From positions 30,001 through 62,000 of the forward strand of contig NC_003276.1 in the NCBI RefSeq assembly GCF_000009705.1: a DNA stretch of 32,000 bases, in the 5' to 3' direction. Position 1 is the stretch's first letter; every line of letters begins with the position of its first letter. Under the pieces are notes generated by a model. The model had not been told where the DNA came from. It searched no databases and saw nothing but the letters and a program-made list of their open reading frames with translations. The DNA is from Nostoc sp. PCC 7120 = FACHB-418 (lineage in GTDB: Bacteria; Cyanobacteriota; Cyanobacteriia; Cyanobacteriales; Nostocaceae). This document shows positions 8,320-31,924 of the stretch, piece after piece. The position numbers and the translations under genes were made by a program.

Positions 8320-8577
8320 ATGAACGAATTACCAAAAGAATACCCATTTATCCACGTTTATACACAGCAAAAAGCACATCAGCCGGTGATCATCAAAGGT
8401 AATACCGAAGGCTTATGTGTGCTTCTGAACGCCATAGTTACGGCAATTGCACACCGAGACTGTAACGGTGTAGCTGAAGTATTTGACGGCGATGCCGAAG
8501 TTTTTGAAGTGAGAGTTCAAATAGTTAAGACTCACTCTGAACTTGCACCACTACCGTATAAGGAATTACACCAATGA
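8320..8577 (+). CDS. Hypothetical protein (85 aa), translationally coupled to the AAA+ gene
   Basis: Its stop overlaps the ATPase ATG (ATGA at 8574-8577). It is preceded by the small hairpin GAGGGGtgaaaatCCCCTC. Confidence 0.55.
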   Translation: MNELPKEYPFIHVYTQQKAHQPVIIKGNTEGLCVLLNAIVTAIAHRDCNGVAEVFDGDAEVFEVRVQIVKTHSELAPLPYKELHQ

Positions 8578-10199
8578 ACCTAAATAATATATTCTCCACG
8601 CTGGATTCACAAATACCTATTGTGGCATTAGAAGTTCTCTCGCCAGAAGAAGCCACAATCATCCAGTGGTTAACAGCCAATGCACACGAGAAATTGAAAT
8701 CTGCGGTATTCTTCTGGAATCTGGGAGTATCGGGATTGGAACAGTGTGAGATTGCCTCTGATGGTGGGTTGGTATTTAAACCAGTACCAGAGTACAAAAA
8801 ACCACCCCACGCTGACCCGTTGTTGTACATTTTCGAGTACATTAACAATTTTGATGGTACAGGTGTATTTATCCTCAGTGATGTGCATCCATTTGTGGGC
8901 AAGAACTCGCCTCAACTGAGTTGGGAAATCCTCACACGGGTGAAGAACCTCTATCACCGACTCAAACCCACAGAAAAACGCATTATCTTCTTAGGTCAAA
9001 ATATCGAACTGCACGAGTCGCTAATTCGGCTGATTCCCTATGGTGAAGTGCCATTGCCAACCGTAGAACAAGTGCAAGAGCATATATATTCCTACCTCAA
9101 CTATTTGTCTGAATCTGCCATTGAACAAGACGTACTATTTCGTGTCCTGTTAAGTACTGAAGAAAGAGAAACTTTAGCACGGGCAGCTTTGGGATTAACT
9201 CTGGAGGAAATTAGTGATTTCTTGCGCTTGACTGTCAAAGAGCGTTTGAGTAGCAATGGTATTACTATTGATGCTACTGTTACGCCGATGGTAGTTGAGT
9301 ATAAAACTCGGCTACTCTCTCAAATGGGTATTGAGCTAGGTAAACCTGCACTCTACTCGTTCGGCGGACTTGATTTATTGCGTGAGTGGTTGAATCGGCG
9401 GCGCAAACTGTTCACGCAAGAAGCCAGAAACCTGCAACTGCCACAACCTAAAGGCATACTGCTGGCTGGCCCACCCGGAACGGGAAAAAGTCATTGTGCA
9501 AAGAATATTGCCAATATCCTCAATTTACCACTACTCAAGCTTGATATTGCTTCGATGCTTGGCTCTTTGGTAGGGGAGTCTGAGGGCAATGTCCGCCGCG
9601 CACTCAAGACAGCCGAAGCGATCGCACCCTGCGTTTTGTGGTTAGACGAGTTGGAAAAAGCCTTATCCGGGCAGGGTGATACAAGCGGTGTTTCCCAAAG
9701 AATACTCGGTACTGTCCTCACTTTCATGAGCGAATGTACTTCGGGGGTGTTTGTTGTCGCAACTTGCAATGACGTGACTGCACTCCCAACGGAACTCAAA
9801 CGCAAGGGTCGTTTCGATGAAACCTTCTTTGTAGATTTACCCTCAGAACCAGAGAGAGCGCAAATCCTCAAGATTCACCTGGAGCGATTCGGCATCAATG
9901 TAGAGTCAGAATACCTGGAAGCGATCGCCGCCAACACCTCTAAATTCTCTGGGGCGGAATTAGAAACTCTAGCATCTGAAGCCGCACTACTGGCATTCGA
10001 GCAAGAGCGACCCCAACAGGTGACTTTAGGAGACTTGGAAGAATGCCGTAAAACCATTACCCCACTTGCTGTCCAAGATGCGGCGGCGGTTGAGCGTATG
10101 AGGGAGTGGGCGAAAACTGCAAGGGCGGCATCAACGGCGATTGCGGATACAAAACCCACTCAGTCGATTAAAACTGCGCGGTATCGCAACATGAATTAA
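8574..10199 (+). CDS. AAA+ ATPase, Ycf46-like (N-terminal domain plus one classical AAA module)
   Basis: Walker A is GILLAGPPGTGKSHCAK and Walker B is VLWLDELEKAL. Sensor and arginine-finger region: ATCNDVTALPTELKRKGRFDETFFVDLP. The N-terminus (IPIVALEVLSPEEATIIQWL) resembles cyanobacterial/plastid Ycf46. Confidence 0.9.
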   Translation: MNLNNIFSTLDSQIPIVALEVLSPEEATIIQWLTANAHEKLKSAVFFWNLGVSGLEQCEIASDGGLVFKPVPEYKKPPHADPLLYIFEYINNFDGTGVFILSDVHPFVGKNSPQLSWEILTRVKNLYHRLKPTEKRIIFLGQNIELHESLIRLIPYGEVPLPTVEQVQEHIYSYLNYLSESAIEQDVLFRVLLSTEERETLARAALGLTLEEISDFLRLTVKERLSSNGITIDATVTPMVVEYKTRLLSQMGIELGKPALYSFGGLDLLREWLNRRRKLFTQEARNLQLPQPKGILLAGPPGTGKSHCAKNIANILNLPLLKLDIASMLGSLVGESEGNVRRALKTAEAIAPCVLWLDELEKALSGQGDTSGVSQRILGTVLTFMSECTSGVFVVATCNDVTALPTELKRKGRFDETFFVDLPSEPERAQILKIHLERFGINVESEYLEAIAANTSKFSGAELETLASEAALLAFEQERPQQVTLGDLEECRKTITPLAVQDAAAVERMREWAKTARAASTAIADTKPTQSIKTARYRNMN

Positions 10200-12620: not shown

Positions 12621-12671
12621 AATTTGCAATTCGCTTCGGGGCTAAACGCCTCGCTACCGCAATTCGCAATT
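12621..12671. repeat. GCAATTCGC direct repeats flanking a 24-bp G/C-rich insert (small dispersed-repeat-like)
   Basis: GCAATTCGC occurs at 12626-12634 and 12659-12667. The repeat is the reverse complement of the GCGAATT heptamer array at 24364-24386. Confidence 0.6.
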
Positions 12672-16446: not shown

Positions 16447-16547
16447 TTAACAGTTAATACACCGTGTGTTAACAGTGAAAGTAATATCAAATTGACACGG
16501 ATATTGACACAGATGTTGACTAACTTAATTTAACTATTGACTACCGA
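16447..16547 (+). promoter_or_regulatory. 21-bp palindrome followed by four phased TTGAC-containing 12-mers immediately upstream of the 16550 ATG
   Basis: GTTAATACACcGTGTGTTAAC at 16453-16473. ATTGACACGGAT 16491-16502, ATTGACACAGAT 16503-16514, GTTGACTAACTT 16515-16526, ATTGACTACCGA 16536-16547. Confidence 0.55.
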
Positions 16548-16549
16548 GA

Positions 16550-16966
16550 ATGAATCAATCATGGAGAGAAGAACTTTTTAATCAAGAAACCACAAATTCG
16601 GCATTAAATCCCCTGGTTTTACCCATGACAAATGCCCAATCCTTGAGAATTTTGGACATCTGCTATCGAACTTGGGGACGTTGGGAAGAAGTGGCTCAGA
16701 CGATAGCTCAGTATAAACTAGCACAAATACAAATGAAGAACTTTGCCCAAGAACACAGCCTTAGAGCGCCACCAATTCTTCCTTATCAAGTTTGGGTGGT
16801 GGGAAAAATAGGAGAAATCTTTTGTGGTTTAGCTCAAGGGACAAATAAGTTGAATCTCGCTAAAGCAATTGTGGGGGCGAATAAATCTCTGTACAGCCGT
16901 AAAGAGTTTGAAGCCGAACAAATTAGATTTACACAACCGTTAACAGGAGAATTACAAAATGTCTAA
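16550..16966 (+). CDS. Hypothetical protein (138 aa)
   Basis: ORF whose stop overlaps the next start by 8 nt. Confidence 0.6.
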   Translation: MNQSWREELFNQETTNSALNPLVLPMTNAQSLRILDICYRTWGRWEEVAQTIAQYKLAQIQMKNFAQEHSLRAPPILPYQVWVVGKIGEIFCGLAQGTNKLNLAKAIVGANKSLYSRKEFEAEQIRFTQPLTGELQNV

Positions 16967-17675
16967 TAAGGATACATTCACCCGTCAAGAATTATTTGAA
17001 CTGTTAAGCGCCAGTTATCCCCCAGAGAAAATCATTGCAGGGTTACAAGAGTTAGCCAAAACAGACCCAAGCATTGATCCAAATGGAGAAGAATTTGATG
17101 TGGAGGTGAGCGATCGCTTGGAGAGGTTATTTAACCTAGCCGAGACAGTGATAGACCAAGCCAAACTATTGGGAGCAGGAGGAAGCCTGACAAATTTAGA
17201 AACTCAAGCCATTAATAAAACAGTTGAGCAATTGAAGGCTCAGGGTATATCAGGAGAAACGTTTCGCGCATTCTTAGAGATTGCGGCGGGGACAACGGTT
17301 GCTCAAGCGTTTGCCGTTCACAACTTCAAATCACAGTTGTTTGACGACATTTCACAAGAACTAGATGTTCAACTGTTGCAAGAGCGTACACAAGCAGGTG
17401 TTGAAGAAATTTCGCTCATCTACCAAATCATTAAAGATCCTCAAACTAAAGAGAAAATCATCTCTGAGTACGGTTTAAAAACGCCCCAACAGCTTAAGAA
17501 TGAAGTTCAAACTTTGACAGGAACTTCTACACCTGAGTTTGACCCATTGAAGTTTTTTGAGGAGGTAGGTTTACCAGTCGAAGCAAAAAAGTCAGTGCAA
17601 CCCAAGACTATACAGGATTTGCGAACGCTAACCCAGCATTTATTCAAACGACAACCAAATCAAGCTACAGCGTAA
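16959..17675 (+). CDS. Hypothetical acidic protein (238 aa)
   Basis: Clean ORF coupled to the upstream gene. Confidence 0.65.
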   Translation: MSNKDTFTRQELFELLSASYPPEKIIAGLQELAKTDPSIDPNGEEFDVEVSDRLERLFNLAETVIDQAKLLGAGGSLTNLETQAINKTVEQLKAQGISGETFRAFLEIAAGTTVAQAFAVHNFKSQLFDDISQELDVQLLQERTQAGVEEISLIYQIIKDPQTKEKIISEYGLKTPQQLKNEVQTLTGTSTPEFDPLKFFEEVGLPVEAKKSVQPKTIQDLRTLTQHLFKRQPNQATA

Positions 17676-17789
17676 ATAAGTTTTGGGAGAAGTACAAATG
17701 GGCTATCTCAATCATTTTCTTCATGAGTTGTATTGGGCTATCTGTAGGCATTCGTGTACTGCAAGCTTCAACACCAACTCAGGTGATAA

Positions 17790-18140
17790 ATGAGCAAACG
17801 CAAGTATTCAAGTGAGTATTTAGCATATATTCACTCGCCACAGTGGAAGTCTAAATCAAAGCAATGTCAACAATTAACGCTGCATCATTGTGTACTTCTG
17901 CCCTGGTACAAATCCAATCAATGACACCATTTAACCTACAACAACCTGGAGTACGAAATACCTGTGCGCGATATTGTGCCATTGTGTGAATTGGCTCATA
18001 AATTAGTTCACTTATGGTTGTTTTGGAATACTCCAGTGAGGTGTGTAGTAAACTGGTTGCTCAGACTTTTGATGGTATTTTCTCTGTTTTTTTGGCGGGT
18101 GATTTGGGTAGTTAAACAACTTACAAAATTAACGAACTAA
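17790..18140 (+). pseudogene. HNH-like small protein with a hydrophobic tail, interrupted by an in-frame TGA at 17922-17924
   Basis: MSKRKYSSEYLAYIHSPQWKSKSKQCQQLTLHHCVLLPWYKSNQ*HHLTYNNLEYEIPVRDIVPLCELAHKLVHLWLFWNTPVRCVVNWLLRLLMVFSLFFWRVIWVV... The YL.S..W and HHxTY...E...D..PLC...H...H spacing resembles small phage/plasmid HNH proteins. Some Cys ligands are replaced. Confidence 0.4.
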
Positions 18141-18145
18141 TCAAT

Positions 18146-18301
18146 ATGGAAAGACAAATTCTAGATGCAATAGGTTTTGGAAATCCACAAATAGAACCAG
18201 ACCCAAAACCTGTAGTTGAACAAGTTGTAGTTCAAAATGAGCAAATCCCAAACACGATTGACAACTTTGGAAAAATTTTAGACCAGTACGAGCCAGCTTG
18301 A
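18146..18301 (+). CDS. Possible small acidic protein (51 aa)
   Basis: MERQILDAIGFGNPQIEPDPKPVVEQVVVQNEQIPNTIDNFGKILDQYEPA*. It fills the gap before 18311. Confidence 0.3.
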   Translation: MERQILDAIGFGNPQIEPDPKPVVEQVVVQNEQIPNTIDNFGKILDQYEPA

Positions 18302-18310
18302 TTTTGAGGC

Positions 18311-18724
18311 ATGAAATACCAAAAACAAGCACTACTAGGATTATTGGGAATGGGTTTAATCGCTAGTCCTTGGTTATCTAAACTGCCAGCGCAATTCCAC
18401 ACTTACAACACCGCCACAACTATTCAACAATCCGAAGAAATAGAGCGGATTAAAGCCGAAGAAAGGGCAGCAACATCCCAAAGAATTAACGAGTTAGGAG
18501 TCAGCCCCAGCTTTAAAAAATTGCGGATGCAAAATTATTTAGATACTCATTCCCGTAATCCTAGACCCAATACTACAGGTTATTTAGAAGATGAACTAGT
18601 TTTTGTCTATGACTCGACAGGCAGGTGCATCGGGCGAATCGAAGAACGTCAATGGAAATGGAAATATCGATTTAGAAATGCCTGCACTGACTCACCACTA
18701 TATTCTGATGCTAAAAACTCATGA
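18311..18724 (+). CDS. Secreted or membrane-anchored protein (137 aa)
   Basis: Signal/anchor-like N-terminus MKYQKQALLGLLGMGLIASPWL. The stop overlaps the next ATG (ATGA). Confidence 0.65.
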   Translation: MKYQKQALLGLLGMGLIASPWLSKLPAQFHTYNTATTIQQSEEIERIKAEERAATSQRINELGVSPSFKKLRMQNYLDTHSRNPRPNTTGYLEDELVFVYDSTGRCIGRIEERQWKWKYRFRNACTDSPLYSDAKNS

Positions 18725-19425
18725 GCAATCCCACACCAACTACTCCTAACCCACAACCAAATCCACAAAATAAACCGCAACGAGGATTGGGTGAGTATTT
18801 AGAACTGTTAGCCCGATGGATTGTTGAGCTAATTTCACTACCAGTTGTGTTTGTCTCACACATCGTTGCTCAATTCGTAACCCCAGGTACACCAGGATAT
18901 AGATTAGTCGGTGCAATTGGTTTTTGGATTGGCACACTGCTTTCTACTGATGGTATTTGGCAAGTTTTATTTCAAGGCAAACCCATTTTCCCCTGGTTTG
19001 AAACTGAATGGATCGGATGGTTGGGGTGGTTACAACTACCATTTAATCCACTGTTTTGGATCAGTTTTGGTATCTCTGCATTGGTACAAGTGATGGAAGC
19101 TCGAACTCTGCGTGGTAAAGACCCAATCCAAGCGAGATCCGAGTTTGAGGAATCCAAGCAATATGCTCTAGGTAGCAAACCCACCGGGAATATTGACCTG
19201 ACTGTGGCTTTGTGGGGTGATTATAAGAGGGCAGGCATGAAAGAACGTAATGCAGGGGGAGCGATCGCACTATTTTTCTGGGTACTGGACATCACCACCA
19301 CATTCGTAGGTCGTTGGCCCTTCCGTTACACTGATCCAGGCACAATCTTAGGTTGTTTTGCGTATAACTGTGCCTCAATGATGGCTGGCGAGATTGGCTA
19401 CAACATTTGGAAAATTACTAAGTAA
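18721..19425 (+). CDS. Polytopic membrane protein (234 aa)
   Basis: Pro/Asn-rich N-terminus followed by at least four hydrophobic Trp-rich segments. Confidence 0.7.
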   Translation: MSNPTPTTPNPQPNPQNKPQRGLGEYLELLARWIVELISLPVVFVSHIVAQFVTPGTPGYRLVGAIGFWIGTLLSTDGIWQVLFQGKPIFPWFETEWIGWLGWLQLPFNPLFWISFGISALVQVMEARTLRGKDPIQARSEFEESKQYALGSKPTGNIDLTVALWGDYKRAGMKERNAGGAIALFFWVLDITTTFVGRWPFRYTDPGTILGCFAYNCASMMAGEIGYNIWKITK

Positions 19426-19436
19426 GAGGGGCGAAG

Positions 19437-21257
19437 ATGCAGCAAACAATACCAATGCTAGGCACAAAAGAAACGGCACTGTTACGTGGCGATTATCCCA
19501 GTATTGAGTATTTGGAAGCTGGCAACATCGCTTCTTGGTTACAGGAGCGTCAAGACCAACTACTCATCCGTGCTAGAGATGAACGTAATGGCATGAACCT
19601 TGCCAAGTTCATCACTTTGGCGACGGCGGCCACTGGTGCTGTTTGCTATGCCACTTCCCCGCTTGCTCCTATCGGTGCGGTAGTGGCTGGAATTGGGTAT
19701 CTCTGGTCAATAGTGCAAGACATCAACGACACTCACCAATTCGCTCCTATCCCCTTTATTCGCGGTAACTTTGTTGAGTTCCTCTCGGCAATGGGTGACA
19801 GCGTTGCTAGGGACGAATATTTTGCTAACAAAAATGAACTGGCTGACTTGATGCTCCACTTAGAGCCAATGGAGAAATATGAGTTCGCCATGCTCAAGCA
19901 ATCATCTCATGTGGTGTGTGAATACTTGAGCGTCGTTGAGCCTGGAAAAAGGTTTTATGCTTACCGTTGGTTACTTGATTGGTTCATTCAGTTGCGTGGG
20001 CAGTTCCCAACCCGTGATCAATTGTCTGGGCATTTAGCGCAAGTGACAATTGACCCACGAGTAAATTACCAACAAGTAACAGTTATTCAAGAAGCTATTA
20101 AACCCCAAAATCTTGGTATTCCACCTGCAAGGTTTGTTGAATTACCTTCTGCTGTGAATCAACCAGTAGAGGACAAGACTGTTACTATAATCCCAAGCGC
20201 CCAAGCGCCTTCTATATCTAACCCGTCCTTGGGGACAGTAGTTTCTAGTTATGAGCCTACCCCAACTGCGATTGTTAACACGGAAATCTCCACCTACACC
20301 AGTAAACCTCAACGACAGTATGACCTCATTGGACATATTGCCAAGAAAGTGACAAATATGCTGTGGGTTGGTGTCCCTGGTTCCGGCAAGGGCATCACTA
20401 TTAGCAATGCTATTGATGCCATCAAGCGATCGCATAGAGGCATACACATTTTTTACATTGACCCCAAAGGTGATGAGAAAGAAACTGGTTATTTCACTGG
20501 TCGCGTTGACACTTTAAAACGTGCCAAGATTCTGGAAATGTCACCCATTGAGGCAGTCAAGTGGGTCAAAGACTGTTTTGCCGAGTTTCAACTTATCACT
20601 GGGGACAAGCTCATTATTCTGGATGAAGGTACGGCGGTTTGTTCCAAATTCAAGAATGCTAAGAATGAAATTGGTTGGCTCAAGGACAAAATCATTTCCT
20701 ACTGTTCTTGTGGTGATAGTTCTGGTTGGCACTTCTGGATAGTCGTGCAGAATCCCCATACTGATGATTTGGGTATTTCTGGGGGACTGCGATCGCAATT
20801 AACTTCTGTCGCATTGGTTCACCCAGATAATGTACCAGCTTACAATGCCATGATTGCCACGCAGTTGATTCCCAGCGATCGCAAAATTACTTCGACGCAA
20901 GTGATGGAGATTGCGGCACAATCACCTGTAGGTCGAGCAGTGTATTACGGCGGGTTGAACGAATGGTTCCCCATGCAGTTGCTACAAAACTTCTCTGGCT
21001 ACGACCGGGATAATAAAAAGTTTCTGGATACACCAAAGATTAATGATTCCTCTCAAGTAGCAGATTTAGATGCAACTGAAACATCCCAAAGTCAGTCTCA
21101 ACGGGTACTAGCACTTTTGGAACGTACTACTGCATCCTCACTCGATGAATTTATCTACAACGAGTTGAAATTAGACGGGACTCAAGCCGATTTAGTACGT
21201 GTGGGGATTGAGAAATTACTTAAGGATTCTCCTTTGAAATACAAATTTGACGGGTGA
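19437..21257 (+). CDS. Membrane-anchored P-loop NTPase, FtsK/SpoIIIE/TraB-like DNA-translocase candidate
   Basis: TM segment FITLATAATGAVCYATSPLAPIGAVVAGIGYLWSIV. Walker A is WVGVPGSGKG and Walker B is KLIILDEG. GWHFWIVVQNPHTDDLGISGGLRSQLTSVAL resembles the FtsK motif G(I)HLI.ATQRP..D.I...IK.N...RIA. Confidence 0.7.
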   Translation: MQQTIPMLGTKETALLRGDYPSIEYLEAGNIASWLQERQDQLLIRARDERNGMNLAKFITLATAATGAVCYATSPLAPIGAVVAGIGYLWSIVQDINDTHQFAPIPFIRGNFVEFLSAMGDSVARDEYFANKNELADLMLHLEPMEKYEFAMLKQSSHVVCEYLSVVEPGKRFYAYRWLLDWFIQLRGQFPTRDQLSGHLAQVTIDPRVNYQQVTVIQEAIKPQNLGIPPARFVELPSAVNQPVEDKTVTIIPSAQAPSISNPSLGTVVSSYEPTPTAIVNTEISTYTSKPQRQYDLIGHIAKKVTNMLWVGVPGSGKGITISNAIDAIKRSHRGIHIFYIDPKGDEKETGYFTGRVDTLKRAKILEMSPIEAVKWVKDCFAEFQLITGDKLIILDEGTAVCSKFKNAKNEIGWLKDKIISYCSCGDSSGWHFWIVVQNPHTDDLGISGGLRSQLTSVALVHPDNVPAYNAMIATQLIPSDRKITSTQVMEIAAQSPVGRAVYYGGLNEWFPMQLLQNFSGYDRDNKKFLDTPKINDSSQVADLDATETSQSQSQRVLALLERTTASSLDEFIYNELKLDGTQADLVRVGIEKLLKDSPLKYKFDG

Positions 21258-21294: not shown

Positions 21295-22296
21295 CTACAA
21301 GCTTTTGTATTGATTCACCAGTTTCTGGATATAGGGCTTGGATGAACCGTAACTTACAATTGCTACATCAAGCTCAACATTCTTGTAGATATTCAAGGCA
21401 CGTTGAATTGCTGCAACAATCCAATCTATTTGGTTGCCAAATGCTCCCCCACCAAGCAGCGTCAGAAACAATTTATTATTACCGTTTTTTCTCCAATTCA
21501 AAATCGCGCTACAAATAGTTGCTTCGTAGGATGCTTCTAAAACCAATTGTGCAAATTTTGTCCATAAATCTGAAAAACGATCCGAGTAAGCAACTGGTAA
21601 AGCCGAACAATAAGCTTGTGAAACTTTGTGTTTGCAGTCATTAAGTGTCACTTGGGTATGCCATTGAATCCCGATGCGTAGCAACTTTCGCAATTCATCA
21701 AATTCCTTTTCATTTAATGCTTCTAGCCGATTTGAAATTTCGGCTAAACCGCTACGTGATGGCAAAGCATAACCGTTTCGCATTTCCCAAAGACGGTTAT
21801 CTTGATTTCCTAATGCTGCTCCTATATCTTTTAGGCAATCAATTTGGTTTGTTGCCGATTGACCAATTTGCCCATTTACTTTCACAAAATAATTTCGATA
21901 AATCGTACCTGCACCAGCTGCCACAGCACAAGCTGGCCCTTGAGTAAAGTCATTCTCATAAATTCCTACACCATACTCAGGCGTTACATTAGGAGATGTC
22001 ATTTCTAGCAAATTGAACTGGGAAGCTACTTGAAACAAGGAATTAGCATTGACTTCATTGATATGCAAATCCTGCACATTGGCTACTACTTCTTGGAGAG
22101 TTATTTTTCCCTTTGGATATCCACTTTTTAGAACACGTTCTCGCAGTTCGGCTAATGACGGTGTTTCTAGCTGACCACAAATCATGACTTTCCCATTAAC
22201 ATGAGATTTTAGCAACTCACCGTCAACAGTCATATTTTCCCTCACTTGCTGTGGGGATCGTTCCGCAAAACCTGTTAATGTTTCAAACCAAGTCAC
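21295..22296 (-). CDS. Macro-domain / bacterial-PARG-like (TIGR02452-like) protein; putative ADP-ribose-binding or -hydrolysing enzyme
   Basis: The 333-aa ORF is solid. LFQVASQFNLLE...FTQGPACAVAAGAGTIYRNYF and LTLLGGGAFGNQIDWIVAAI parallel the NFAS...AQEE.LcR.S.LY and LVLGAWGCG.FgNDP blocks of microbial PARG-like macro proteins, recalled from memory. The catalytic QEE is not conserved. Confidence 0.45.
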   Translation of the reverse strand: MTWFETLTGFAERSPQQVRENMTVDGELLKSHVNGKVMICGQLETPSLAELRERVLKSGYPKGKITLQEVVANVQDLHINEVNANSLFQVASQFNLLEMTSPNVTPEYGVGIYENDFTQGPACAVAAGAGTIYRNYFVKVNGQIGQSATNQIDCLKDIGAALGNQDNRLWEMRNGYALPSRSGLAEISNRLEALNEKEFDELRKLLRIGIQWHTQVTLNDCKHKVSQAYCSALPVAYSDRFSDLWTKFAQLVLEASYEATICSAILNWRKNGNNKLFLTLLGGGAFGNQIDWIVAAIQRALNIYKNVELDVAIVSYGSSKPYIQKLVNQYKSL

Positions 22297-23240: not shown

Positions 23241-23402
23241 ATGATGTTTCTAGAACTAACCATATCATCTGGTGATGGCTTAACATCCGGCATCGGCATT
23301 TATCTGACTATCCCTGATAGTGCAACAATTGAACTGATTGCCATTGTCCAAGGTGACACTTATTCGAGTCTGGACGCTAGTTACTTTAACTATTTGGGCT
23401 GA
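23241..23402 (+). CDS. Possible small ORF or gene fragment (53 aa)
   Basis: MMFLELTISSGDGLTSGIGIYLTIPDSATIELIAIVQGDTYSSLDASYFNYLG*. The tail resembles the C-termini of cyanobacterial Ca-binding/RTX-like exoproteins, so it may be a remnant. Confidence 0.3.
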   Translation: MMFLELTISSGDGLTSGIGIYLTIPDSATIELIAIVQGDTYSSLDASYFNYLG

Positions 23403-23469
23403 TTGTTTGTTAAAAGCTAATCGTATGGTGGTAGCCAAAAATTTATCTACCATGTTTATAAATATTGAT

Positions 23470-24024
23470 ATGAAAATAGTAACCAAGAGATTTTTGCTGC
23501 GTGATTTCGTTGAATTAGATCGATTGCCATTTTTAAACTATCAAGCCGATCCACGCAGTCAAATATTTTCTGAATCTAACCAAGCTAGTCCCGAAAATTC
23601 AGCACGTTTGTTTGAAACATTTTGCACATGGGCTTGTGAGCAGCCTCGACTTAATTACCAACTGGCGATTGTTCAACGGCGTGAACCTTACGCACTTGTT
23701 GGCTGTTGCGGACTGAGGGGAAGAGGGTTTGATGCAGGTGAAATGGAGCTAGGAATTGAACTTGCACCAGATTATTGGGGACGATATGCTTATGCGATCG
23801 AGGTTGGGAGCGCCCTGCTTGACTTCGGATTCAGGGAACTAGGGCTAAATGTCATCTCTGGTTCCACAGTTAGTGCAAATGTGCGGATCGCTCGGTTGGC
23901 AAAGTGGAGCGGAGCAGAAGTAGTTACTATCCGTCCGGGTTCGAGATGGATGTCCCAACGAGGTTGGAGCGAGGTAAACTGGCAAATCACTAGAGCGCAG
24001 TGGAACAGTCGCATCACTGTTTGA
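23470..24024 (+). CDS. GNAT family N-acetyltransferase (RimJ/RimL-like)
   Basis: Starting at Met45 of the track ORF: MKIVTKRFLLRDFVELD...GIELAPDYWGRYAYAIEVGSALLDFGF. Confidence 0.85.
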   Translation: MKIVTKRFLLRDFVELDRLPFLNYQADPRSQIFSESNQASPENSARLFETFCTWACEQPRLNYQLAIVQRREPYALVGCCGLRGRGFDAGEMELGIELAPDYWGRYAYAIEVGSALLDFGFRELGLNVISGSTVSANVRIARLAKWSGAEVVTIRPGSRWMSQRGWSEVNWQITRAQWNSRITV

Positions 24025-24363: not shown

Positions 24364-24386
24364 GCGAATTGCGAATTGCGAATTGC
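24364..24386. repeat. Heptamer tandem repeat (GCGAATT x3), STRR-like
   Basis: GCGAATTGCGAATTGCGAATTGC. Confidence 0.85.
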
Positions 24387-25236: not shown

Positions 25237-27483
25237 TCATCCCATCGACTGTAACAACCTCTGCCACAACCGCGTGTACCTCTGCTGGTCATCTGTAGTT
25301 CGCACAGCCAGAGCGATCGCCTTCTTAGAGCCAACCACAATCGCCAACTTCCTTGCGCGAGTTAAACCAGTGTAAAACAAATTCCGCGAAAGCATGACAT
25401 AGTGTTGCATGAAAAGTGGAAATATCACCACCGGAAACTCTCCGCCCTGGCTTTTATGCACAGAGATACTAAATGCCAGCGTTATCTCGTTCAAATCAGC
25501 ATAATCATAAACCACAGCCCGACCACCATACTCAACCGTAACCTCTTGTTCCTCCGTGTCGATACTCAGAATAGTCCCCAAATCTCCATTGAACACCTCA
25601 CGGTCATAGTCATTCATTTGTTGAATTACGCGATCGCCCTCCCGCAAAACCATCCCACCCCGGTTAATCTCGACTTTCCCCTGTGCAGGCGGATTGATCA
25701 GCTGCTGTAAAACAGCATTAAGATTTCGCGTCCCGACTAACCCCCGCGACATCGGGGATAGCACCTGCACATCAGTCGAGGGATTGAAGCCCAGCCGGGG
25801 GATAAACTCGCCTACCAATTCGCAGATTGCTTGGACTCCGTGTTCAGGACTGTGGCCACCACCATGCCACAAGCAGTCCGACTGCGGATTATCTGAGATT
25901 GGTTCTATATTTGGATAGTCACCCTGGTTGATTTGATGCGCTGCCGTGACAATCGCACTTTGCTGGGCTTGGCGAAATACTTGCGTTAGCTTGACCACCG
26001 GGACTTGCAGCGAGGTAATCAAATCTGCTAACACTTTACCAGGGCCAACTGAGGGTAATTGGTCGATGTCTCCCACCAGTAATAGTTGCGCTCCTTGTGC
26101 TACTGCTTTCACTAGGGAATGTGCCAGAAACAGATCCAGCATCGAAGCTTCATCAGCAATAATGGCACTGAAGGGTAAGGGATTTTCGTTATCCCGCTTA
26201 AATCCCATAGTTTTAGGGTCAAACTCCAGCAAGCGGTGAATGGTTTTCGCTTCAAGTCCTGTCATTTCCGATAATCGTTGTGCGGCTCTCCCAGTTGGTG
26301 CAGCCAAGGCGATGCTTTTGCTCATCGCTTTCCACAATGAGACAATCGTGTGTGTCGTGAAAGTTTTGCCCACGCCAGGGCCACCAGTCAGAACCATTAC
26401 GGGTGAGTACGCTGCCATCTCCACTGCTTTCTGCTGTTGGGGTGATAGCTCAATCTTGCGGCTGGACATAAAGCGATCTAGCCATGTACGGACACGGGGG
26501 ATGTCTTGTTTGACTTGTTGGCGTAACCGTCGAGATATCAACTGTGCTAAGTTTTGTTCTGTGTGGAAGAAGCTCGGCTTATAACAGAGTAATAATTTTT
26601 CTCCGTAGCTGTCCCTGACAAATTCCCTGATCAGTTCTTCCTTGGTTGACATATCTTTGATGATGTCCGCGATCGCATCCTCTGTTGGCTGGTGGTCATC
26701 TGTTGTTAGTAGTTTGATAACTTTTTCGATTAGTTCCGGCTGGGGGAGATAACAGTGACCATCCTCAGCAGCTTCACTCAATGCGTGGATGATTCCAGCA
26801 CTGTATCGAAACTCTGAGCTTGTTGGTACGCCCAGGTTTCTCGCAATCTTGTCGGCTGTGAGAAAGCCGATACCGTAGATGTCGGTGGCAAGCTGGTACG
26901 GGTTCGCGGTGACGGTGGCGATCGCCTGATCCTGATATTGCTTGTAAATTTTGACTGCATAGGTAGTCGATACGCCGTGGGTTTGCAAGAACACCATCAC
27001 CTCTTTGATGGCTTTTTGCGTCTCCCAGGCATTCTTGATTAGCTTGATGCGCTTCTTGGCGATACCTTGTACTTCGATGAGGCGGTCAATTTGGTTTTCA
27101 ATGATGTCGAGGGTTTCTAAACCGAAATGTGCAACAATGCGTCTTGCTGTGACAGGCCCGACTCCTTTGATTAGTCCACTGCCCAGGTATTTCTCAATCC
27201 CTGTGAGGGTTGCAGGTTTGGTTTCGTGGTAGTTAGTGACATTAAACTGTGGCCCGTACTGGGGGTGATCCTTCCAGAAACCAGTTAGCTGAAGCGTTTG
27301 CCCTGGTTGGATGTTAGCGAAGCTGCCGACGATGGTGGTCAGGTCGGTACTGCGGGAGCGGGTTAGGCGTGCGACTGTGTAGCCTGACTCCTCTGAGTGG
27401 AAAGTCAGGCGCTCGACTACTCCGGTGATGGTTTCGTAGTGGGGTTGTACTGATGATTGTTGTGCTGTGGGTAGAGTGGACAT
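25237..27483 (-). CDS. recD2: RecD2-type SF1 ATP-dependent DNA helicase (RecD-like, with HhH region)
   Basis: N-terminus GVVERLTFHSEESGYTVARL. HhH region: GIEKYLGSGLIKGVGPVTARRIVAHFG. Walker A is VLTGGPGVGKTF. Also IADEASMLD, LLLVGDIDQLPSVGPG, FSISVHKSQGGEFPVV and LFYTGLTRARK. Confidence 0.9.
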   Translation of the reverse strand: MSTLPTAQQSSVQPHYETITGVVERLTFHSEESGYTVARLTRSRSTDLTTIVGSFANIQPGQTLQLTGFWKDHPQYGPQFNVTNYHETKPATLTGIEKYLGSGLIKGVGPVTARRIVAHFGLETLDIIENQIDRLIEVQGIAKKRIKLIKNAWETQKAIKEVMVFLQTHGVSTTYAVKIYKQYQDQAIATVTANPYQLATDIYGIGFLTADKIARNLGVPTSSEFRYSAGIIHALSEAAEDGHCYLPQPELIEKVIKLLTTDDHQPTEDAIADIIKDMSTKEELIREFVRDSYGEKLLLCYKPSFFHTEQNLAQLISRRLRQQVKQDIPRVRTWLDRFMSSRKIELSPQQQKAVEMAAYSPVMVLTGGPGVGKTFTTHTIVSLWKAMSKSIALAAPTGRAAQRLSEMTGLEAKTIHRLLEFDPKTMGFKRDNENPLPFSAIIADEASMLDLFLAHSLVKAVAQGAQLLLVGDIDQLPSVGPGKVLADLITSLQVPVVKLTQVFRQAQQSAIVTAAHQINQGDYPNIEPISDNPQSDCLWHGGGHSPEHGVQAICELVGEFIPRLGFNPSTDVQVLSPMSRGLVGTRNLNAVLQQLINPPAQGKVEINRGGMVLREGDRVIQQMNDYDREVFNGDLGTILSIDTEEQEVTVEYGGRAVVYDYADLNEITLAFSISVHKSQGGEFPVVIFPLFMQHYVMLSRNLFYTGLTRARKLAIVVGSKKAIALAVRTTDDQQRYTRLWQRLLQSMG

Positions 27484-28130: not shown

Positions 28131-31100
28131 TCAGAGACATTCACGACTCATTACTAAATCTCCATTGGCTAGCCGATACACCCCTTGAGGTTCCACAATC
28201 AGCTCGCCTTTTTTCCATGAACTCGCTGCACTGTTATTAGTCACACTCTGCACATCACCTGTAGGATAACTAGAAGCCGCCGCCTCACCAGGACGATGAG
28301 GTAAACTACCAGTGCCGGTAATAATAAAAGTGCCTTCTTGCTTAGGGCTGCGAGCAATGCAACTATTAGCAATTAGGGCGTTAGTATCAATGGGATTGTT
28401 TTCTAATTCTGTCAGGCCGTTTTGGATAAAACTTATATCAGGCACACCGATAATATTACCTGAGACTGTACCAGTGGCATTAATGTCTGAGCGATTATTA
28501 TTACTCAATGACTGGAGGCTATTTCTATCAGATGTTGTTTGTCTAGGGCTATAGAGAGAATCACTAAACACAGCACGAGTGTTAAATCTAATATCGCCGC
28601 CTTGCCCCTCTGGTGCAAAGGCGAGAATATCGCTATCTTCTAAAGCGATGATGATATCTGCTGTGAGGGAAATATCACCGCCTTTACCATTACCACCTGA
28701 TAAATCAGTACGGATATCGCTGTTATTCCGCAAGCGGATGTTTCTAGCATTGATGTTAATATGACCTCCACCGGATTGTTCGGAGCTGGCACTTACTAAA
28801 CCATTATTCGCATTAAAATTACCTGTGGCTACAATATTGATATCCCCTGCAACACCTTCTCCCAGACTGCTTGTGGCAACCGCGATGGGATAAGGAAGAT
28901 TAGAGTTAGTGGCGGATAAATTAAAGTCTGTTGTAAATAAGGATATATTCCCACCACCTCCACTAGAAGTAGTACCTGCTAACAAAGCAGTTAAGCCAGT
29001 GTTGCTAAAAATAGTAATGTTATCTGTAGCATTAATCGTAATATCACCCGCTTTACCACTGCTCATAGTTCCTGTCACTAAAACTCCCCCATTTAATACC
29101 TCAACCACACGGGCATTGATAGTAACATTACCTGCATTACTAGAATTGCCTGTCGCTGATGATATCGTAGCTTTGTCTGCTAGACGGAAGTAATCTGTGT
29201 TGACTATGATATCGCCTCCCTGACCAAATGCTCCCTTTTGAGTTTCAGTTAATATTGCACTTGTAATACCATCAGCATTAAGTCCTGAGATGTTTACTGC
29301 ATTTGTAGCATTAATGCGAATACGTCCACCTTTACCTTGTACAGCAGGTAAGTCTTCCAAGGCTCCGAAAACGGAACTACTTATGCGACCGCCATTAATC
29401 AAAGTCAGCTTTGGTGTCTGAATATTAATATCTCCACCATTTCCAACTCCACTAGATCCCACATTACTATCGATCCAACCGTTATCAATTACCACCTCAT
29501 CATTGCTAAAAATAAAGATATTACCTGCATTACCTTGACCATCAGTTCCCGATGATATAACCCCCTTTATTAGCAATAACTTTCCTGTATTTATTGTTAA
29601 TTCACCACCTTTACCCACAGCAACGACATTATCATTAACAGCGAAAACGCTTGTGGAGATTAAACTGCCTTGATTCAGATTTGAACTAATTAATTCAACC
29701 GAATCCGAGGCATTGATAGTAATATTACCAGCTTGTCCTCCTAAATTATTACTGGCATCTACTGTAATTTGACCGCCATCTCTCACAATCAGATTTTTGG
29801 TATTCAGTGTTATATCGCCAGCACGACTGCTACTACCCGTTCTGGCTACAAAACCAGTTGTTGCATCTTTTGCATTTATCAAACCTTTTGGATCTATTTC
29901 AATGAAATCAGTAGCTGTAACATTAATATTGCCACCAGAACCAATGATTTGTCCTGGTGCTGGTTCTCCAGAGCTAGAAGAAATACTTCCTCTATTTGTT
30001 ATAGTAATTCGTTCAGTTTGAATATTGATATTTCCAGCATTCCCTACATTAGAAATACCTAGCCCCATTAGTGAAGTTGTGGAGATATAAGATTGATTTA
30101 GAAAAATGTCGCGCGCATTAATATTTAGATTAGAGCCATTTCCACTACCAGAACTACCAGATGTTATAATAGAATTATTATCAAGATTCAAGCGGTTGGT
30201 AATAATAGATAAATTACCTGCATTACCTTCTCCAGAAGTATCTGAGGTTATAGAAGAATTGTTATCAAGACTCAAGCGGTTGGTAATAATAGATAAATTA
30301 CCTGCATTACCTTCTCCAATAGTCCTTGCAGTAATACTTGATTCATTTAAACTAATGTAATCGGTAGCTTGAATCTTAATTTCTCCAGAATTACCTACAA
30401 ATAAATTATTAGGATTTGTCAAAACACCATCTGCAAGTAACAAATTTCGTATGCTGACACTATTTATGAAAGAACCATCTGCGAGTGACAGATTGCGCGC
30501 TTGAATATTAATGCCACCATCGCTGAAAATCAAACTGCTCGGAAAATCTGCATTTTTTCCAGAAAGAGCAATTGTATCATCAACTATAACATTAATAATT
30601 CCTGAATTACCTTGTTGGCTATTTATAATTAGCCAACCACTGTTAATAAGTTTTAGTGATTGACCAACAATATTGATATTTCCACTATTCCCCAAGCCTA
30701 AAGAAACATTGCCAATAAAACTACTTTCGGCAATAGTAACTATTCCAGTAGCATTAATAGAAATATCACTAGTTTTAGTCTCAGGATTACCTTGATTAGA
30801 AATTAAAAATGTTTGCAAACTGCTAAAATTTAATAAATTGAAGTTATGAGCATGAAATACAATATCATCACCTTCCGTACCGAGAACAAAAGTAGCAACA
30901 TTAGAATTATTAATTAATGAAATATCTGTTCTAGCCACACCATTAGGAAATGCCAAGCTCAAATTATCATCATTAACCTGAAGCCCGACGCTGCCAGGTG
31001 CAGTTAATCCACCAATTTCGACCCTACCACCTAATGCTTCAATGATTCCACCATCCATCAAAATTTGCCCACTAGCGTCAGGTGTAGGTGCAACATTACC

Positions 31101-31700
31101 TCCAAGTAGTATTAAACTTTTATTATCGGAAACTTGTAAAGAACCACGGTTTTCAATTGAGTTTGCGCCTTGATTAGCAATTTGATTAAATAAAAATGCT
31201 GTAGGATTGACACTCAACAAGGTATTACCTGATGGTACTGATGAAGTTAAAGAAAACTCAGCACCACCAGGAAATTGAATTGCATTGGCTGTAGTCGCTA
31301 CAAAAGAACCCCCAACATTTAATTGAGCGTTTCTTCCAAAAATAATGCCATTTGGATTCATTAAAAATAAATTAGTAGTACCTTGAGCGTAAATCAATCC
31401 TTGAATATCAGAAGGTGTACCACCAGTTACTCGTGCAAAGATATTAGTCAGATTGGGGTCATTTAAAAAAATTGCTGCACCACCGTTAGGAATGTTGAAA
31501 CTACCAAAACTATGGAATAGGTTGGTATTGCCAACTGTTGTACCACCTTGAATTACAGAATATAAACCAATATCTGTAACTTGTGTTCCTAGTGTTTGGT
31601 CGGCTGTGACTTGCGCCAAGGCTTTGAGGTTTGTTGTGCAAGTTAAGCCCAGGAATAGTCCTAAGCGCCACCACCACTGGAAATAAAATTGATTAATCAT
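28131..31700 (-). CDS. Two-partner-secretion exoprotein (TpsA; filamentous-haemagglutinin N-terminal domain, beta-helix repeats)
   Basis: Signal peptide MINQFYFQWWWRLGLFLGLTCTTNLKALAQ, starting at ATG 31700 with an AAGGAAAAG RBS. TPS domain: NLFHSFGSFNIPNGGAAIF...NIFARVTGGTPSDIQGLI...NLFLMNPNGIIFG. It is followed by ~1000 aa of GNAGNI/L-type repeats. Confidence 0.9.
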   Translation of the reverse strand: MINQFYFQWWWRLGLFLGLTCTTNLKALAQVTADQTLGTQVTDIGLYSVIQGGTTVGNTNLFHSFGSFNIPNGGAAIFLNDPNLTNIFARVTGGTPSDIQGLIYAQGTTNLFLMNPNGIIFGRNAQLNVGGSFVATTANAIQFPGGAEFSLTSSVPSGNTLLSVNPTAFLFNQIANQGANSIENRGSLQVSDNKSLILLGGNVAPTPDASGQILMDGGIIEALGGRVEIGGLTAPGSVGLQVNDDNLSLAFPNGVARTDISLINNSNVATFVLGTEGDDIVFHAHNFNLLNFSSLQTFLISNQGNPETKTSDISINATGIVTIAESSFIGNVSLGLGNSGNINIVGQSLKLINSGWLIINSQQGNSGIINVIVDDTIALSGKNADFPSSLIFSDGGINIQARNLSLADGSFINSVSIRNLLLADGVLTNPNNLFVGNSGEIKIQATDYISLNESSITARTIGEGNAGNLSIITNRLSLDNNSSITSDTSGEGNAGNLSIITNRLNLDNNSIITSGSSGSGNGSNLNINARDIFLNQSYISTTSLMGLGISNVGNAGNINIQTERITITNRGSISSSSGEPAPGQIIGSGGNINVTATDFIEIDPKGLINAKDATTGFVARTGSSSRAGDITLNTKNLIVRDGGQITVDASNNLGGQAGNITINASDSVELISSNLNQGSLISTSVFAVNDNVVAVGKGGELTINTGKLLLIKGVISSGTDGQGNAGNIFIFSNDEVVIDNGWIDSNVGSSGVGNGGDINIQTPKLTLINGGRISSSVFGALEDLPAVQGKGGRIRINATNAVNISGLNADGITSAILTETQKGAFGQGGDIIVNTDYFRLADKATISSATGNSSNAGNVTINARVVEVLNGGVLVTGTMSSGKAGDITINATDNITIFSNTGLTALLAGTTSSGGGGNISLFTTDFNLSATNSNLPYPIAVATSSLGEGVAGDINIVATGNFNANNGLVSASSEQSGGGHININARNIRLRNNSDIRTDLSGGNGKGGDISLTADIIIALEDSDILAFAPEGQGGDIRFNTRAVFSDSLYSPRQTTSDRNSLQSLSNNNRSDINATGTVSGNIIGVPDISFIQNGLTELENNPIDTNALIANSCIARSPKQEGTFIITGTGSLPHRPGEAAASSYPTGDVQSVTNNSAASSWKKGELIVEPQGVYRLANGDLVMSRECL
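30178..30317. repeat. 84-bp-period internal tandem repeat in the TpsA gene (two 56-bp near-identical cores)
   Basis: ttatcaaga[t/c]tcaagcggttggtaataatagataaattacctgcattaccttctcc occurs at 30178-30233 and 30262-30317. It encodes GEGNAGNLSIITNRL(S/N)LDNN twice. Confidence 0.85.
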
Positions 31701-31924
31701 TGGCTTTTCCTTGCTTCCCCCGATGGGTACATATGTTAGCTGTAGCACCTGCTATTCACTTTGAAGCCTGGGGGCATAAATTGCAACTCCGCATAACTTG
31801 ATAGAAATTGCAATACAGTTTTATCCACTTTTACATACATCATTGTGCTGATATAGATGCTAAAACCTGCATCTAACCTTTCATAAAAGCTGAAGGACTA
31901 AGAGATTATTTATAAAGTAAATCT

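Follow-up and report, generated by a model that had tools for sequence, protein, structure and literature searches.

What does a three-gene membrane module that ends in an FtsK-like ATPase do for the plasmids of filamentous cyanobacteria? The question is raised by a locus on a large plasmid, very probably pCC7120alpha, of Nostoc sp. PCC 7120, which we analysed within a stretch of 32,000 nucleotides (contig NC_003276.1, positions 30,001 to 62,000; hereafter the window, in whose numbering coordinates are given unless another locus is named). An operon at positions 16550-21257 closes with genes for a membrane-anchored protein of 137 amino acids (aa), a polytopic membrane protein of 234 aa and an ATPase of 606 aa. 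In filamentous cyanobacteria, this three-gene module is a hallmark of plasmids and of integrated elements. Its best explanation is a DNA-translocation device, for transfer or for spreading, that resembles the TraB/Spd system of Streptomyces, a reading to which we give a probability of roughly 40%. On this reading the region would be the cargo-independent backbone module of a cyanobacterial mobile-element family, now embedded in a large Nostoc plasmid that is very probably pCC7120alpha.

The arrangement of the trio is constant. Open reading frames (ORFs) from 86 loci were clustered, and the loci fall into 15 sequence groups. The genes for the ~137-aa protein, the ~237-aa protein and the ATPase followed each other in the same order and on the same strand in 15 of the 15 groups. 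Their upstream neighbours included a 97-aa family (8/15 groups), an 88-aa family (6/15) and a ParM/ALP_N-like gene (5/15), and a tyrosine recombinase lay downstream of the trio in 7 of the 15. Within the GTDB species set, 179 loci encode a window-type protein. The best 80 of these 179 are all cyanobacterial except for two contigs that are probably mis-binned; most of them belong to Nostocales, Coleofasciculaceae or filamentous taxa resembling Leptolyngbya, and one genome often has more than one copy. The closest relatives reside on large plasmids of Trichormus variabilis and of several Nostoc strains, and the exact 606-aa protein occurs in 160 blocks of an assembly-collection index, a number that fits a frequently sequenced laboratory strain.

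A search with a hidden Markov model of the ATPase domain extended the family to 567 representative clusters, of which 445 scored E <= 1e-10 and 239 scored E <= 1e-30. Most of these proteins are about 450-530 aa long, have a shorter and different N-terminus, and retain the hydrophobic hairpin with its SPL turn and the GKG P-loop. In PLSDB, the long and short forms of the ATPase are confined to plasmids of filamentous genera, and the few named members of the wider family are proteins from metagenome-assembled genomes of cyanobacteria. Four contexts of the wider family were examined, and each again held an anchored protein, a polytopic protein of ~215-235 aa and the ATPase; in the one context that was compared, the partners were not detectably homologous to those of the window. 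The 137/234/606 trio is thus strictly conserved as a module but accessory: it belongs to plasmids and integrative elements and is no housekeeping locus. A preliminary description of this DNA, made from the letters alone, had treated the trio as accessory and its host as filamentous, and the survey of plasmids, integrated elements and GTDB loci agrees with it on both counts.

Neighbours of the wider-family modules included VapE/DUF3854 primases, MreB/ParM-like genes, XisA/C-type or tyrosine integrases, and peptidoglycan hydrolases, the last of these near the module in loci L093, L095 and L096. Recombinases of the XisA/XisC type adjoin two of these modules (L095:3189-4325; L096:16934-17500). The XisA/XisC family excises the nifD and hupL elements in heterocysts, and the sequences thus hint at a link between these mobile elements and the heterocyst excision elements.

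The replicons that carry the module tell the same story of mobility. We found it on 61 cyanobacterial plasmid records, and its host replicons range from 13 kb to more than 400 kb and carry theta-type primase-helicase Rep genes and partition genes. On small complete plasmids, a gene for a primase-helicase of ~1000-1100 aa (Prim-Pol/DUF3987 or DUF3854) diverges from an operon in which a ParM-like gene and a series of small genes precede the trio, and a recombinase gene is also present. Three complete plasmids of 22-29 kb, from Scytonema, Fischerella and Allocoleopsis (L004, L086 and L089), are without an annotated relaxase or type IV secretion system (T4SS); statements on the presence or absence of relaxases rest here on existing annotation and on MOB-suite typing. 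An integrated element of ~11 kb in the chromosome of Calothrix NIES-4101 (L090), also without an annotated relaxase, consists of a D5_N primase, the operon, an Arm-type integrase and little else. By our analysis, such a set of genes (Int, Rep and a single large operon) is the one found in AICEs, the integrative and conjugative elements of actinomycetes. The L090 element is flanked by two identical-looking ISAZ013 transposase gene pairs (992-2205 and 18170-19383 of that locus), an arrangement that suggests a composite transposon.

Is the operon of the window itself a working copy? An ORF scan of the window placed all six intact ORFs on the plus strand and reproduced the positions, the overlapping junctions, and the Walker and FtsK-like motifs that had been described before. 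The first gene encodes a 138-aa protein (16550-16966, +), and the gene for a 238-aa protein (16959-17675, +) overlaps it by 8 nt. A small hydrophobic ORF follows at ~17678-17815 (+); its start codon is ambiguous, it contains the hydrophobic segment WAISIIFFMSCIGLSVGIRVLQAS, and it is the positional counterpart of a 48-aa coding sequence in Nostoc sp. NIES-3756. Next come a decayed HNH-endonuclease-like gene (17790-18140, +) and an acidic ORF of 51 aa (18146-18301, +; pI 4.05). The trio completes the operon: the 137-aa protein gene (18311-18724, +), the 234-aa protein gene (18721-19425, +), which overlaps it by 4 nt, and the ATPase gene (19437-21257, +). Independent gene callers predicted the 51/137/234/606 set too. 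The decay of the HNH-like gene, already recognised in the preliminary description, is borne out: frame 0 of 17790-18140 reads HHCVLLPWYKSNQ up to an in-frame stop at 17922-17924 and HHLTYNNLEYEIPVRDIVPLCELAHKLVH beyond it, and the zinc-binding Cys residues are gone. Since the orthologous operon of Nostoc sp. NIES-3756 has an identical gene order and no HNH remnant, this remnant is an insertion and stands outside the conserved module.

In comparisons with orthologs on other Nostoc plasmids, dN/dS ran from 0.02 to 0.37 for the 138-aa gene; the other five genes, among them the 51-aa ORF (0.14-0.20) and the 238-aa gene (0.11-0.15), had values of 0.08-0.20. Because these ratios are low, the six genes are functional and under purifying selection, and the operon is no decaying relic.

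The genes ahead of the trio are less uniform. The 138-aa family occurs in 7 of the 15 lineage groups at a conserved position, shares the alignment signature TK.ELARILGV.R.TL..W, and has members with sub-threshold matches to HTH_8, HTH_17 and HTH_23; the window's member is probably a helix-turn-helix (HTH) DNA-binding protein or regulator, as judged from its sequence. The 238-aa protein is acidic (pI 4.75), soluble and confined to the window's own lineage group. More generally, the products of the small genes before the trio are soluble, in many cases very acidic (pI 4.1-4.7), and differ widely between lineages, with poor conservation (strings examined: L003:6858-8693, L004:15135-16743, L090:7302-8882 and L096:5825-7536). 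These proteins could serve as DNA mimics, as anti-defence proteins, or in secretion or assembly.

The domain architecture of the ATPase provided insights into what the module may do. Its translation contains the Walker A motif GVPGSGKG, the Walker B motif LIILDEG, and the segment WHFWIVVQNPHTDDLG followed by GGLRSQL. An AlphaFold (AF2) model of the protein has a mean predicted local distance difference test (pLDDT) score of 72, with values of 80-95 in the core and 60-70 in the tail. Residues 1-222 (19437-20102, +) make up a conserved helical N-domain with a membrane hairpin and its SPL turn, modelled as helices H31-73 and H77-99 around the hydrophobic stretch LATAATGAVCYATSPLAPIGAVVAGIGYLW (hydrophobic residues 68-94). 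Residues 224-291 are modelled as a disordered linker. Residues 290-531 (20304-21029, +) hold the P-loop core of the additional strand catalytic E (ASCE) class, with the motifs GVPGSGKG, IFYIDPKGDEKE, LIILDE, WIVVQNPH and GGLRSQ, and are modelled as a RecA-like alpha/beta fold with a single P-loop domain. The last residues, 552-606 (21090-21257 with the stop codon, +), form a hypervariable three-helix tail followed by a hairpin, with modelled helices H553-563, H569-577 and H584-596. This tail of ~60 residues is only 9-19% identical among homologs and keeps a helix-helix-helix-hairpin pattern of the kind seen in winged helices, which makes it a candidate DNA-recognition domain.

An alignment of 36 homologs showed that the first ~220 residues are the best conserved part of the protein, with many invariant columns, and that the ATPase half evolves fast. 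The N-domain stays 65-72% identical where the ATPase half is less than 25% identical or beyond BLASTP detection. The N-domain defines the family, and we presume that it acts as the docking domain. Within the window's subfamily, the Walker A motif G-x-P-G-x-G-K-G, the strand motif IFYIDPKxDxKE and the Walker B motif hhhhDE are invariant or nearly so, as are the Q that ends the post-Walker-B strand (WIVVQNPH) and the R that follows 13 residues later (GGLRSQ). Iyer et al. reportedly described such a motif layout in 2004 as typical of the FtsK-HerA superfamily. Foldseek comparisons with the Protein Data Bank (PDB) gave EccCb1-D2 of M. tuberculosis as the top match (2.9e-5), followed by the FtsK motor domains of E. 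coli and P. aeruginosa (1e-4 to 5e-4). Together, fold and motifs support a membrane-anchored ASCE P-loop protein of an FtsK-like fold class, at modest structural scores.

Profile comparisons carried the argument further. When the profile of the window's ATPase subfamily was compared with those of the other main subfamilies, three were linked to it with probabilities of 99.9%, 95% and 94%, and a fourth with only 50%. The FtsK_SpoIIIE model PF01580 was matched by 4 of the 36 family members. The match is genuine only in P0112 and P0118 (1e-24), in which the family N-domain is fused to a true FtsK_SpoIIIE domain; the two remaining matches are sub-threshold and cover the P-loop only. P0112 directly follows a homolog that is 63% identical to the 234-aa protein of the window. 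A true FtsK domain is thus accepted in the same membrane context, and this is the best argument for an FtsK-type job of the orphan domain. Searches of the PDB with a clean ATPase-domain profile returned nothing below E = 0.1, and a whole-family profile found only generic P-loop matches (Rho, 1e-3; DUF87, 4e-3; EccC, 0.07). Ftsk_gamma had no Pfam match in the ATPase. The KAP_NTPase and ABC_tran models matched neither the window protein nor any of the 36 family members, and the hydrophobic hairpin lies N-terminal to the ATPase domain, whereas KAP-type transmembrane (TM) helices are inserted within the P-loop domain; the non-translocase families named in the preliminary description thus do not account for the protein. 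The proteins of the module form new families, and an FtsK-class pump in the service of a mobile element is already known as a kind of system.

The two partners of the ATPase are membrane proteins, as their hydrophobic segments and AF2 models indicate, in keeping with the preliminary description of an N-terminal segment, a polytopic protein and an N-terminal ATPase hairpin. In the 137-aa protein, a single hydrophobic segment near the N-terminus (residues 7-25) would be an anchor or a signal; a charged helical stretch and a beta-rich C-terminal domain come next. This protein has 21 homolog clusters, all cyanobacterial, and no Pfam domain. The 234-aa protein is polytopic and all-helical, with 7 helices in the AF2 model and clear hydrophobic segments at residues 26-56 and 178-197. 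It has 97 homolog clusters at 50-90% identity, likewise without a Pfam domain, and its model found no match in the PDB (Foldseek, best E about 2). Conservation of the 234-aa protein is about as strong as that of the ATPase N-domain, which suggests that the two may interact.

Short DNA repeats adjoin the module in many lineages. In 6 of 14 groups (~40% of lineages), arrays of 6-16 copies of a motif of 7-9 bp begin 12-300 bp past the ATPase stop codon; only 2.0-2.5% of the other intergenic gaps of >=150 bp in the same loci hold >=6 copies. The motif is lineage-specific and occurs in both orientations, and some arrays include perfect inverted repeats of 17-20 nt. Examples located after the ATPase stop are arrays of GGTGTAAT (L056:11890-12120), CGCCACAC (L053:11890-12070), TGACCA (L060:11826-12016), GCTGACC (L065:11950-12150), AAACAAGGCAGCC (L085:5660-5860) and CCGGAAACCGG (L004:19935-20064). 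Three more groups carry arrays within the 3' end of the ATPase gene. Motif identity tracks the type of ATPase tail: groups 1 and 12 share a tail type and the motif CGAAACG, and L045, which falls inside group 1, has a different tail and no CGAAACG array. The clt locus of Streptomyces consists of 8-bp direct repeats that are recognised by the C-terminus of TraB (PMC4447253). In our analysis, the downstream arrays are candidate clt-like or centromere-like sites.

A second type of repeat stands at the head of the operon. In the window, the 12-bp motif ATTGACAC(G/A)GAT is present at 16491-16547 (+) in two good and two degenerate copies, as a candidate operator or cis site; the repeat ends 2 nt ahead of the start codon of the 138-aa gene. 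Upstream of the homologous first gene in two relatives (L017:6270-6365 and L030:7458-7562), the unit ATTGA(C/T)ACAGAT is repeated in tandem in 7-8 copies at 12-bp spacing. The 12-bp unit contains TTGACA (-35-like) hexamers, and arrays of GTCAATA/ATGTCAA occur at ~-2.5 kb from the ATPase in several group-0 loci. From its sequence, the 138-aa HTH protein is a candidate for binding the operon-head array. Other repeats of the window were considered and set aside. CAGTTGC has three copies near the 3' end of the ATPase gene and is not an array, and CAATTCGC is not enriched in the window and represents a dispersed heptamer of the short tandemly repeated repetitive (STRR) kind. The heptamer CAATTCG forms a short tandem repeat at 24364-24385 (-) and also at 12627-12667; its arrays lie at variable positions in many related Nostoc loci, are STRR-like and are not specific to the module.

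Based on these findings, we infer a complex, a DNA substrate, and a direction and purpose of transport as follows. The core would be a three-protein complex of the inner membrane, composed of the anchored periplasmic 137-aa protein, the polytopic 234-aa protein and the 606-aa ATPase, whose N-terminal hairpin domain would dock to both partners. The C-terminal half of the ATPase would be a fast-evolving pump of the FtsK-HerA type, ending in a small winged-helix-like specificity domain. The ATPase might oligomerise at the membrane or the septum, and DNA of the element could be recognised through the ATPase tail or through the HTH protein of the operon. Double-stranded DNA (dsDNA) would then be pumped through a channel formed with the two partners into the neighbouring cell, so that the element would spread along the filament or between filaments. 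We prefer this TraB/Spd-like reading because it covers most of the features at once: the element backbone, the pump, its partners, the tail and the repeats, the relaxase-free elements and the hosts. A bolder version, which we regard as doubtful, is that filamentous cyanobacteria have AICE-like elements of their own that move as dsDNA by means of a single pump, two new partners and a clt-like site, that is, a conjugation of the Streptomyces type that is either independent or diverged beyond recognition. The movement would be between the cells of one filament or from filament to filament, the clt-like site would be lineage-specific, and cyanobacteria, with their Gram-negative-type envelope, would be the second multicellular phylum of bacteria to have such a conjugation.

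Several observations weigh against the TraB/Spd-like reading. Searches of Pfam, NCBIfam, PHROGs and PADLOC gave nothing significant for any protein of the module, phmmer found no significant match to the ATPase among PDB sequences, and the window ATPase did not match PF01580 even at E <= 1. Aligned by hhalign with the FtsK_SpoIIIE domain of P0112 and P0118, the window's subfamily reached a probability of 4%. By sequence, the ATPase is not a member of FtsK/SpoIIIE or TraB. The preliminary label of an FtsK/TraB-like ATPase thus stands as to structure, through the EccC and FtsK matches, and falls as to sequence membership. The structural scores are themselves modest (TM-scores of 0.28-0.45, about 0.35-0.45 to the target), and Rho, TrwK/VirB4, KaiC, PilT and RecA follow closely behind EccC and FtsK, with Rho, KaiC and VirB4 less than an order of magnitude away. 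Nothing known resembles the partner proteins, whose homologs are all cyanobacterial hypothetical proteins, as indeed all members of the module families are annotated. No relation of the partners to Spd, VirB or Tcp proteins was detectable in Pfam, NCBIfam, PHROGs or homolog searches, the Spd comparison resting on library scans and not on Spd sequences or structures. A literature search returned no paper on the module and no experimental data. The repeats are also open to other readings. The in-gene arrays fall where SET and RF peptides are repeated and may reflect these peptides only, and the co-variation of tail and motif was rejected as proof of DNA recognition, since related loci share both by descent. 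In repeat scans, the window's own group and groups 2 and 4 had no array at the 3' end of the ATPase gene. For the window's own lineage the TraB/Spd-like reading is in fact weakest: it has no 3' array, and its plasmid encodes a T4SS. pCC7120alpha carries, elsewhere, a canonical T4SS of the MPF_C type with the relaxase alr7199, VirB4 alr7206 and VirD4 alr7213 (PMC8600333). Because of this set, the lack of T4SS genes in the window says nothing about the whole plasmid, and the earlier argument from missing VirB4, VirD4 and relaxase genes to a single-translocase system does not hold.

The relaxases of the host plasmids count against a TraB-like device and lend weight to another possibility, which we nonetheless consider rather unlikely. 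A divergent FtsK-type coupling protein, comparable to the type IV coupling proteins (T4CPs) TcpA of pCW3 and Orf21 of Tn916, would bring a single strand with its bound relaxase to a T4SS that is encoded in cis or in trans, and the two membrane partners would be accessory channel or docking components. MOB-suite typing placed a relaxase on 46 of the 61 module plasmids (35 mobilizable and 11 conjugative), the other 15 being typed as non-mobilizable. MobC and a MOBP relaxase are encoded on pNPM6, p057_M and a 39-kb Tolypothrix plasmid, at a distance of 3-5 kb from the module in pNPM6 and p057_M; however, no relaxase family was linked within 10 kb across lineage groups, and the trio is also present on the 22-29 kb plasmids and the ~11-kb element that have no annotated relaxase. 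The MPF_C T4SS of pCC7120alpha could serve as a partner in this scenario, but it comes with a VirD4 of its own. TrwK/VirB4 is among the Foldseek matches, and sub-threshold P-loop matches were obtained to TrwB_AAD_bind (0.0082, in P0063), TraD (0.013-0.016), the VirD4-like CD1115 (0.021), TrbB and VirB4-like models, whereas T4SS-DNA_transf, TraG-D_C and TrwB found no match at threshold in any member. For P0285, a distant member, NCBI gives the name type IV secretory system conjugative DNA transfer family protein, a label that the models scanned do not support. A tail that looks like a winged helix, and repeats adjoining the gene, would be foreign to T4CPs. Plasmid maintenance is an unlikely explanation as well. 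The ATPase would then be a septum-anchored analogue of FtsK/SpoIIIE that clears or distributes plasmid copies while septa close and/or activates the linked tyrosine recombinase for multimer resolution, with the nearby arrays as guides in a KOPS- or centromere-like manner. In many elements the operon opens with a ParM/ALP_N actin-like partition gene, which makes such a role possible and is a further point against transfer. The FtsK-like fold, the downstream tyrosine recombinase of 7/15 groups and the arrays, which are typical of centromeres, fit as well. Yet known partition and resolution systems need no periplasm-exposed partner and no dedicated polytopic membrane protein, the same plasmids already carry ParM or ParA systems, and the trio of the window has no par or recombinase gene next to it. 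The 138-aa HTH protein gave a weak, non-significant match to a Xer activation factor; we rejected its identification as a XafT/Xer activator, as a generic HTH accounts for the match.

Export of proteins or of virus-like particles fits the data less well. A type VII-like exporter with a single ATPase, similar to EccC/EssC, might secrete the small acidic proteins encoded upstream, which we find quite improbable. EccCb1 D2 is the top structural match in the PDB, P0285 has a weak NCBIfam match to EccCb, and strings of small, soluble and very acidic proteins do precede the trio; but EccC/EssC have three ATPase domains to the one found here, no WXG100 protein or other component of a type VII secretion system (T7SS) was detected in the operon, and conservation of the small genes from lineage to lineage is poor. 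Both the repeat arrays and the winged-helix-like tail would point to DNA instead, and the sister lineage employs a true FtsK_SpoIIIE domain. Very improbable, in our judgement, is a morphogenesis ATPase for packaging or extrusion, of the inovirus pI kind or that of membrane viruses, which would turn the elements into cryptic viruses of a non-lytic kind or into plasmids transferred in vesicles. The pI protein of inoviruses belongs to the FtsK-HerA ATPases, and in ~30% of the predicted inovirus species it comes in a version with an N-terminal TM domain that follows short genes (PMC6813254). The best matches among viral structure models (BFVD) were full-length alignments with uncharacterised proteins of phages, a Nodularia phage among them, with FtsK-like packaging ATPases of giant viruses and virophages next in rank, and peptidoglycan hydrolases and integrases are found nearby. 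Against these stand the absence of Zot matches in Pfam for the window ATPase and the family members examined, in which Zot was never the closest family, the absence of PHROG matches, and a tblastn search of 50,697 phage genomes with the window ATPase and P0285 that recovered no homolog. The short upstream proteins have no TM segments, so that the inovirus version fails the published Zot and coat-protein criteria (PMC6813254); there is no conserved capsid-sized protein, and replicons of 13 kb to more than 400 kb with theta-type Rep and partition genes are not what this reading would predict. An apparent phage homolog, P0253, was rejected, since cyanophage HNH genes matched it through its C-terminal HNH-like extension alone. 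P0253 is a distant ATPase-family member of 716 aa, and its extension matches HNH genes of Nostoc, Anabaena and Cylindrospermopsis phages.

The surroundings of the operon in the window hold further genes. A 333-aa ORF without a Pfam match (21295-22296, -) converges with the ATPase gene across a 37-bp gap, and it accompanies the module in three of three inspected assemblies with an identical ATPase. Neighbouring cargo comprises a classic AAA+ ATPase with a lid domain (8574-10199, +), a GNAT acetyltransferase (23338-24024, +), a full RecD2/YrrC-type helicase (25237-27483, -) and a 1205-aa protein with a TPS (two-partner secretion) domain (28131-31748, -).

If the TraB/Spd-like reading is true, these results would have several implications. 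To our knowledge, dsDNA conjugation of the TraB type has so far come only from mycelial actinomycetes, and its occurrence in cyanobacteria would surprise specialists in conjugation or in cyanobacterial genetics. It would mean that multicellular growth repeatedly favours the spreading of DNA by a single pump. It could also explain how many cyanobacterial plasmids classed as non-mobilizable move; by the current model, 88% of cyanobacterial plasmids are classed as likely immobile (PMC8600333). At least three widespread families of hypothetical proteins would receive names and testable roles, and tools for the genetic manipulation of Nostoc and Anabaena, or explanations for the barriers to it, could follow. 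The compact backbone of Rep, ParM-like gene, trio and recombinase is a signature by which such elements can be recognised in genomes.

How does the module compare with known systems? With EccC/EssC of type VII secretion it shares a membrane-anchored FtsK-like ATPase, and EccCb1 D2 is its top structural match in the PDB; unlike them, it combines a single ATPase domain with features related to DNA (the putative tail and the arrays), and other T7SS components are missing. Inovirus pI proteins (Zot) are likewise ATPases of the FtsK-HerA class with an N-terminal membrane segment, encoded after short uncharacterised genes on episomal or integrated genomes (PMC6813254). In contrast to these, the module has no Zot match, its upstream short proteins are soluble and acidic where inoviruses have coat proteins with a single TM domain, and its replicons are large theta-type plasmids with partition systems. 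The T4CPs TcpA of pCW3, Orf21 of Tn916 and VirD4/TrwB resemble the module ATPase in combining N-terminal TM segments with a single P-loop domain on mobile elements, often together with a MOBP relaxase. The module nevertheless matches no T4CP family model, has no linked VirB4-, VirB6- or VirB8-like genes, occurs also on elements that are relaxase-free by annotation, and shares its host plasmid with a separate VirD4.

The likeness to FtsK/SpoIIIE (PF01580) is one of architecture. The differences are that the module ATPase fails PF01580, aligns with its domain at 4% in hhalign and lacks an Ftsk_gamma match, that its unusual P-loop ends in GKG, that it has a hairpin instead of a four-TM anchor, and that it belongs to mobile elements with two dedicated partners and not to the housekeeping set. 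Shared are a predicted N-terminal membrane anchor, a long disordered linker, a RecA-like ASCE motor, a predicted small C-terminal helical domain and the motif types hhhhDPK, hhhhDE and hhh(T/V)Q(R/N)P; FtsK is among the best Foldseek neighbours, and a sister lineage bears a bona fide PF01580 domain on the same N-domain. As to the TraB/Spd systems of Streptomyces (pSVH1, pIJ101 and AICEs such as pSAM2), the module differs by having no detectable homology to the FtsK_SpoIIIE profile or to Spd-like proteins, by a reversed gene order with the partners upstream of the ATPase, by hosts with a Gram-negative-type envelope, an outer membrane and septal junctions, by an ATPase that is best conserved in its N-terminal domain, by the missing 3' array in the window's lineage, and by the relaxases on many of its plasmids. 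What the two have in common is multicellular filamentous hosts, small plasmids or integrative elements in which Int and Rep accompany a transfer operon (a proposed one in the module's case), and a membrane-associated FtsK-like ATPase with a C-terminal domain of a DNA-recognition type, putative in the case of the module. Both also have small, translationally coupled genes in an operon next to the ATPase gene, one of them for a conserved polytopic membrane protein (compare SpdB2; PMC4447253), and, in many lineages of the module, short repeats by the ATPase gene that recall the 8-bp TRS repeats of clt (PMC4447253).

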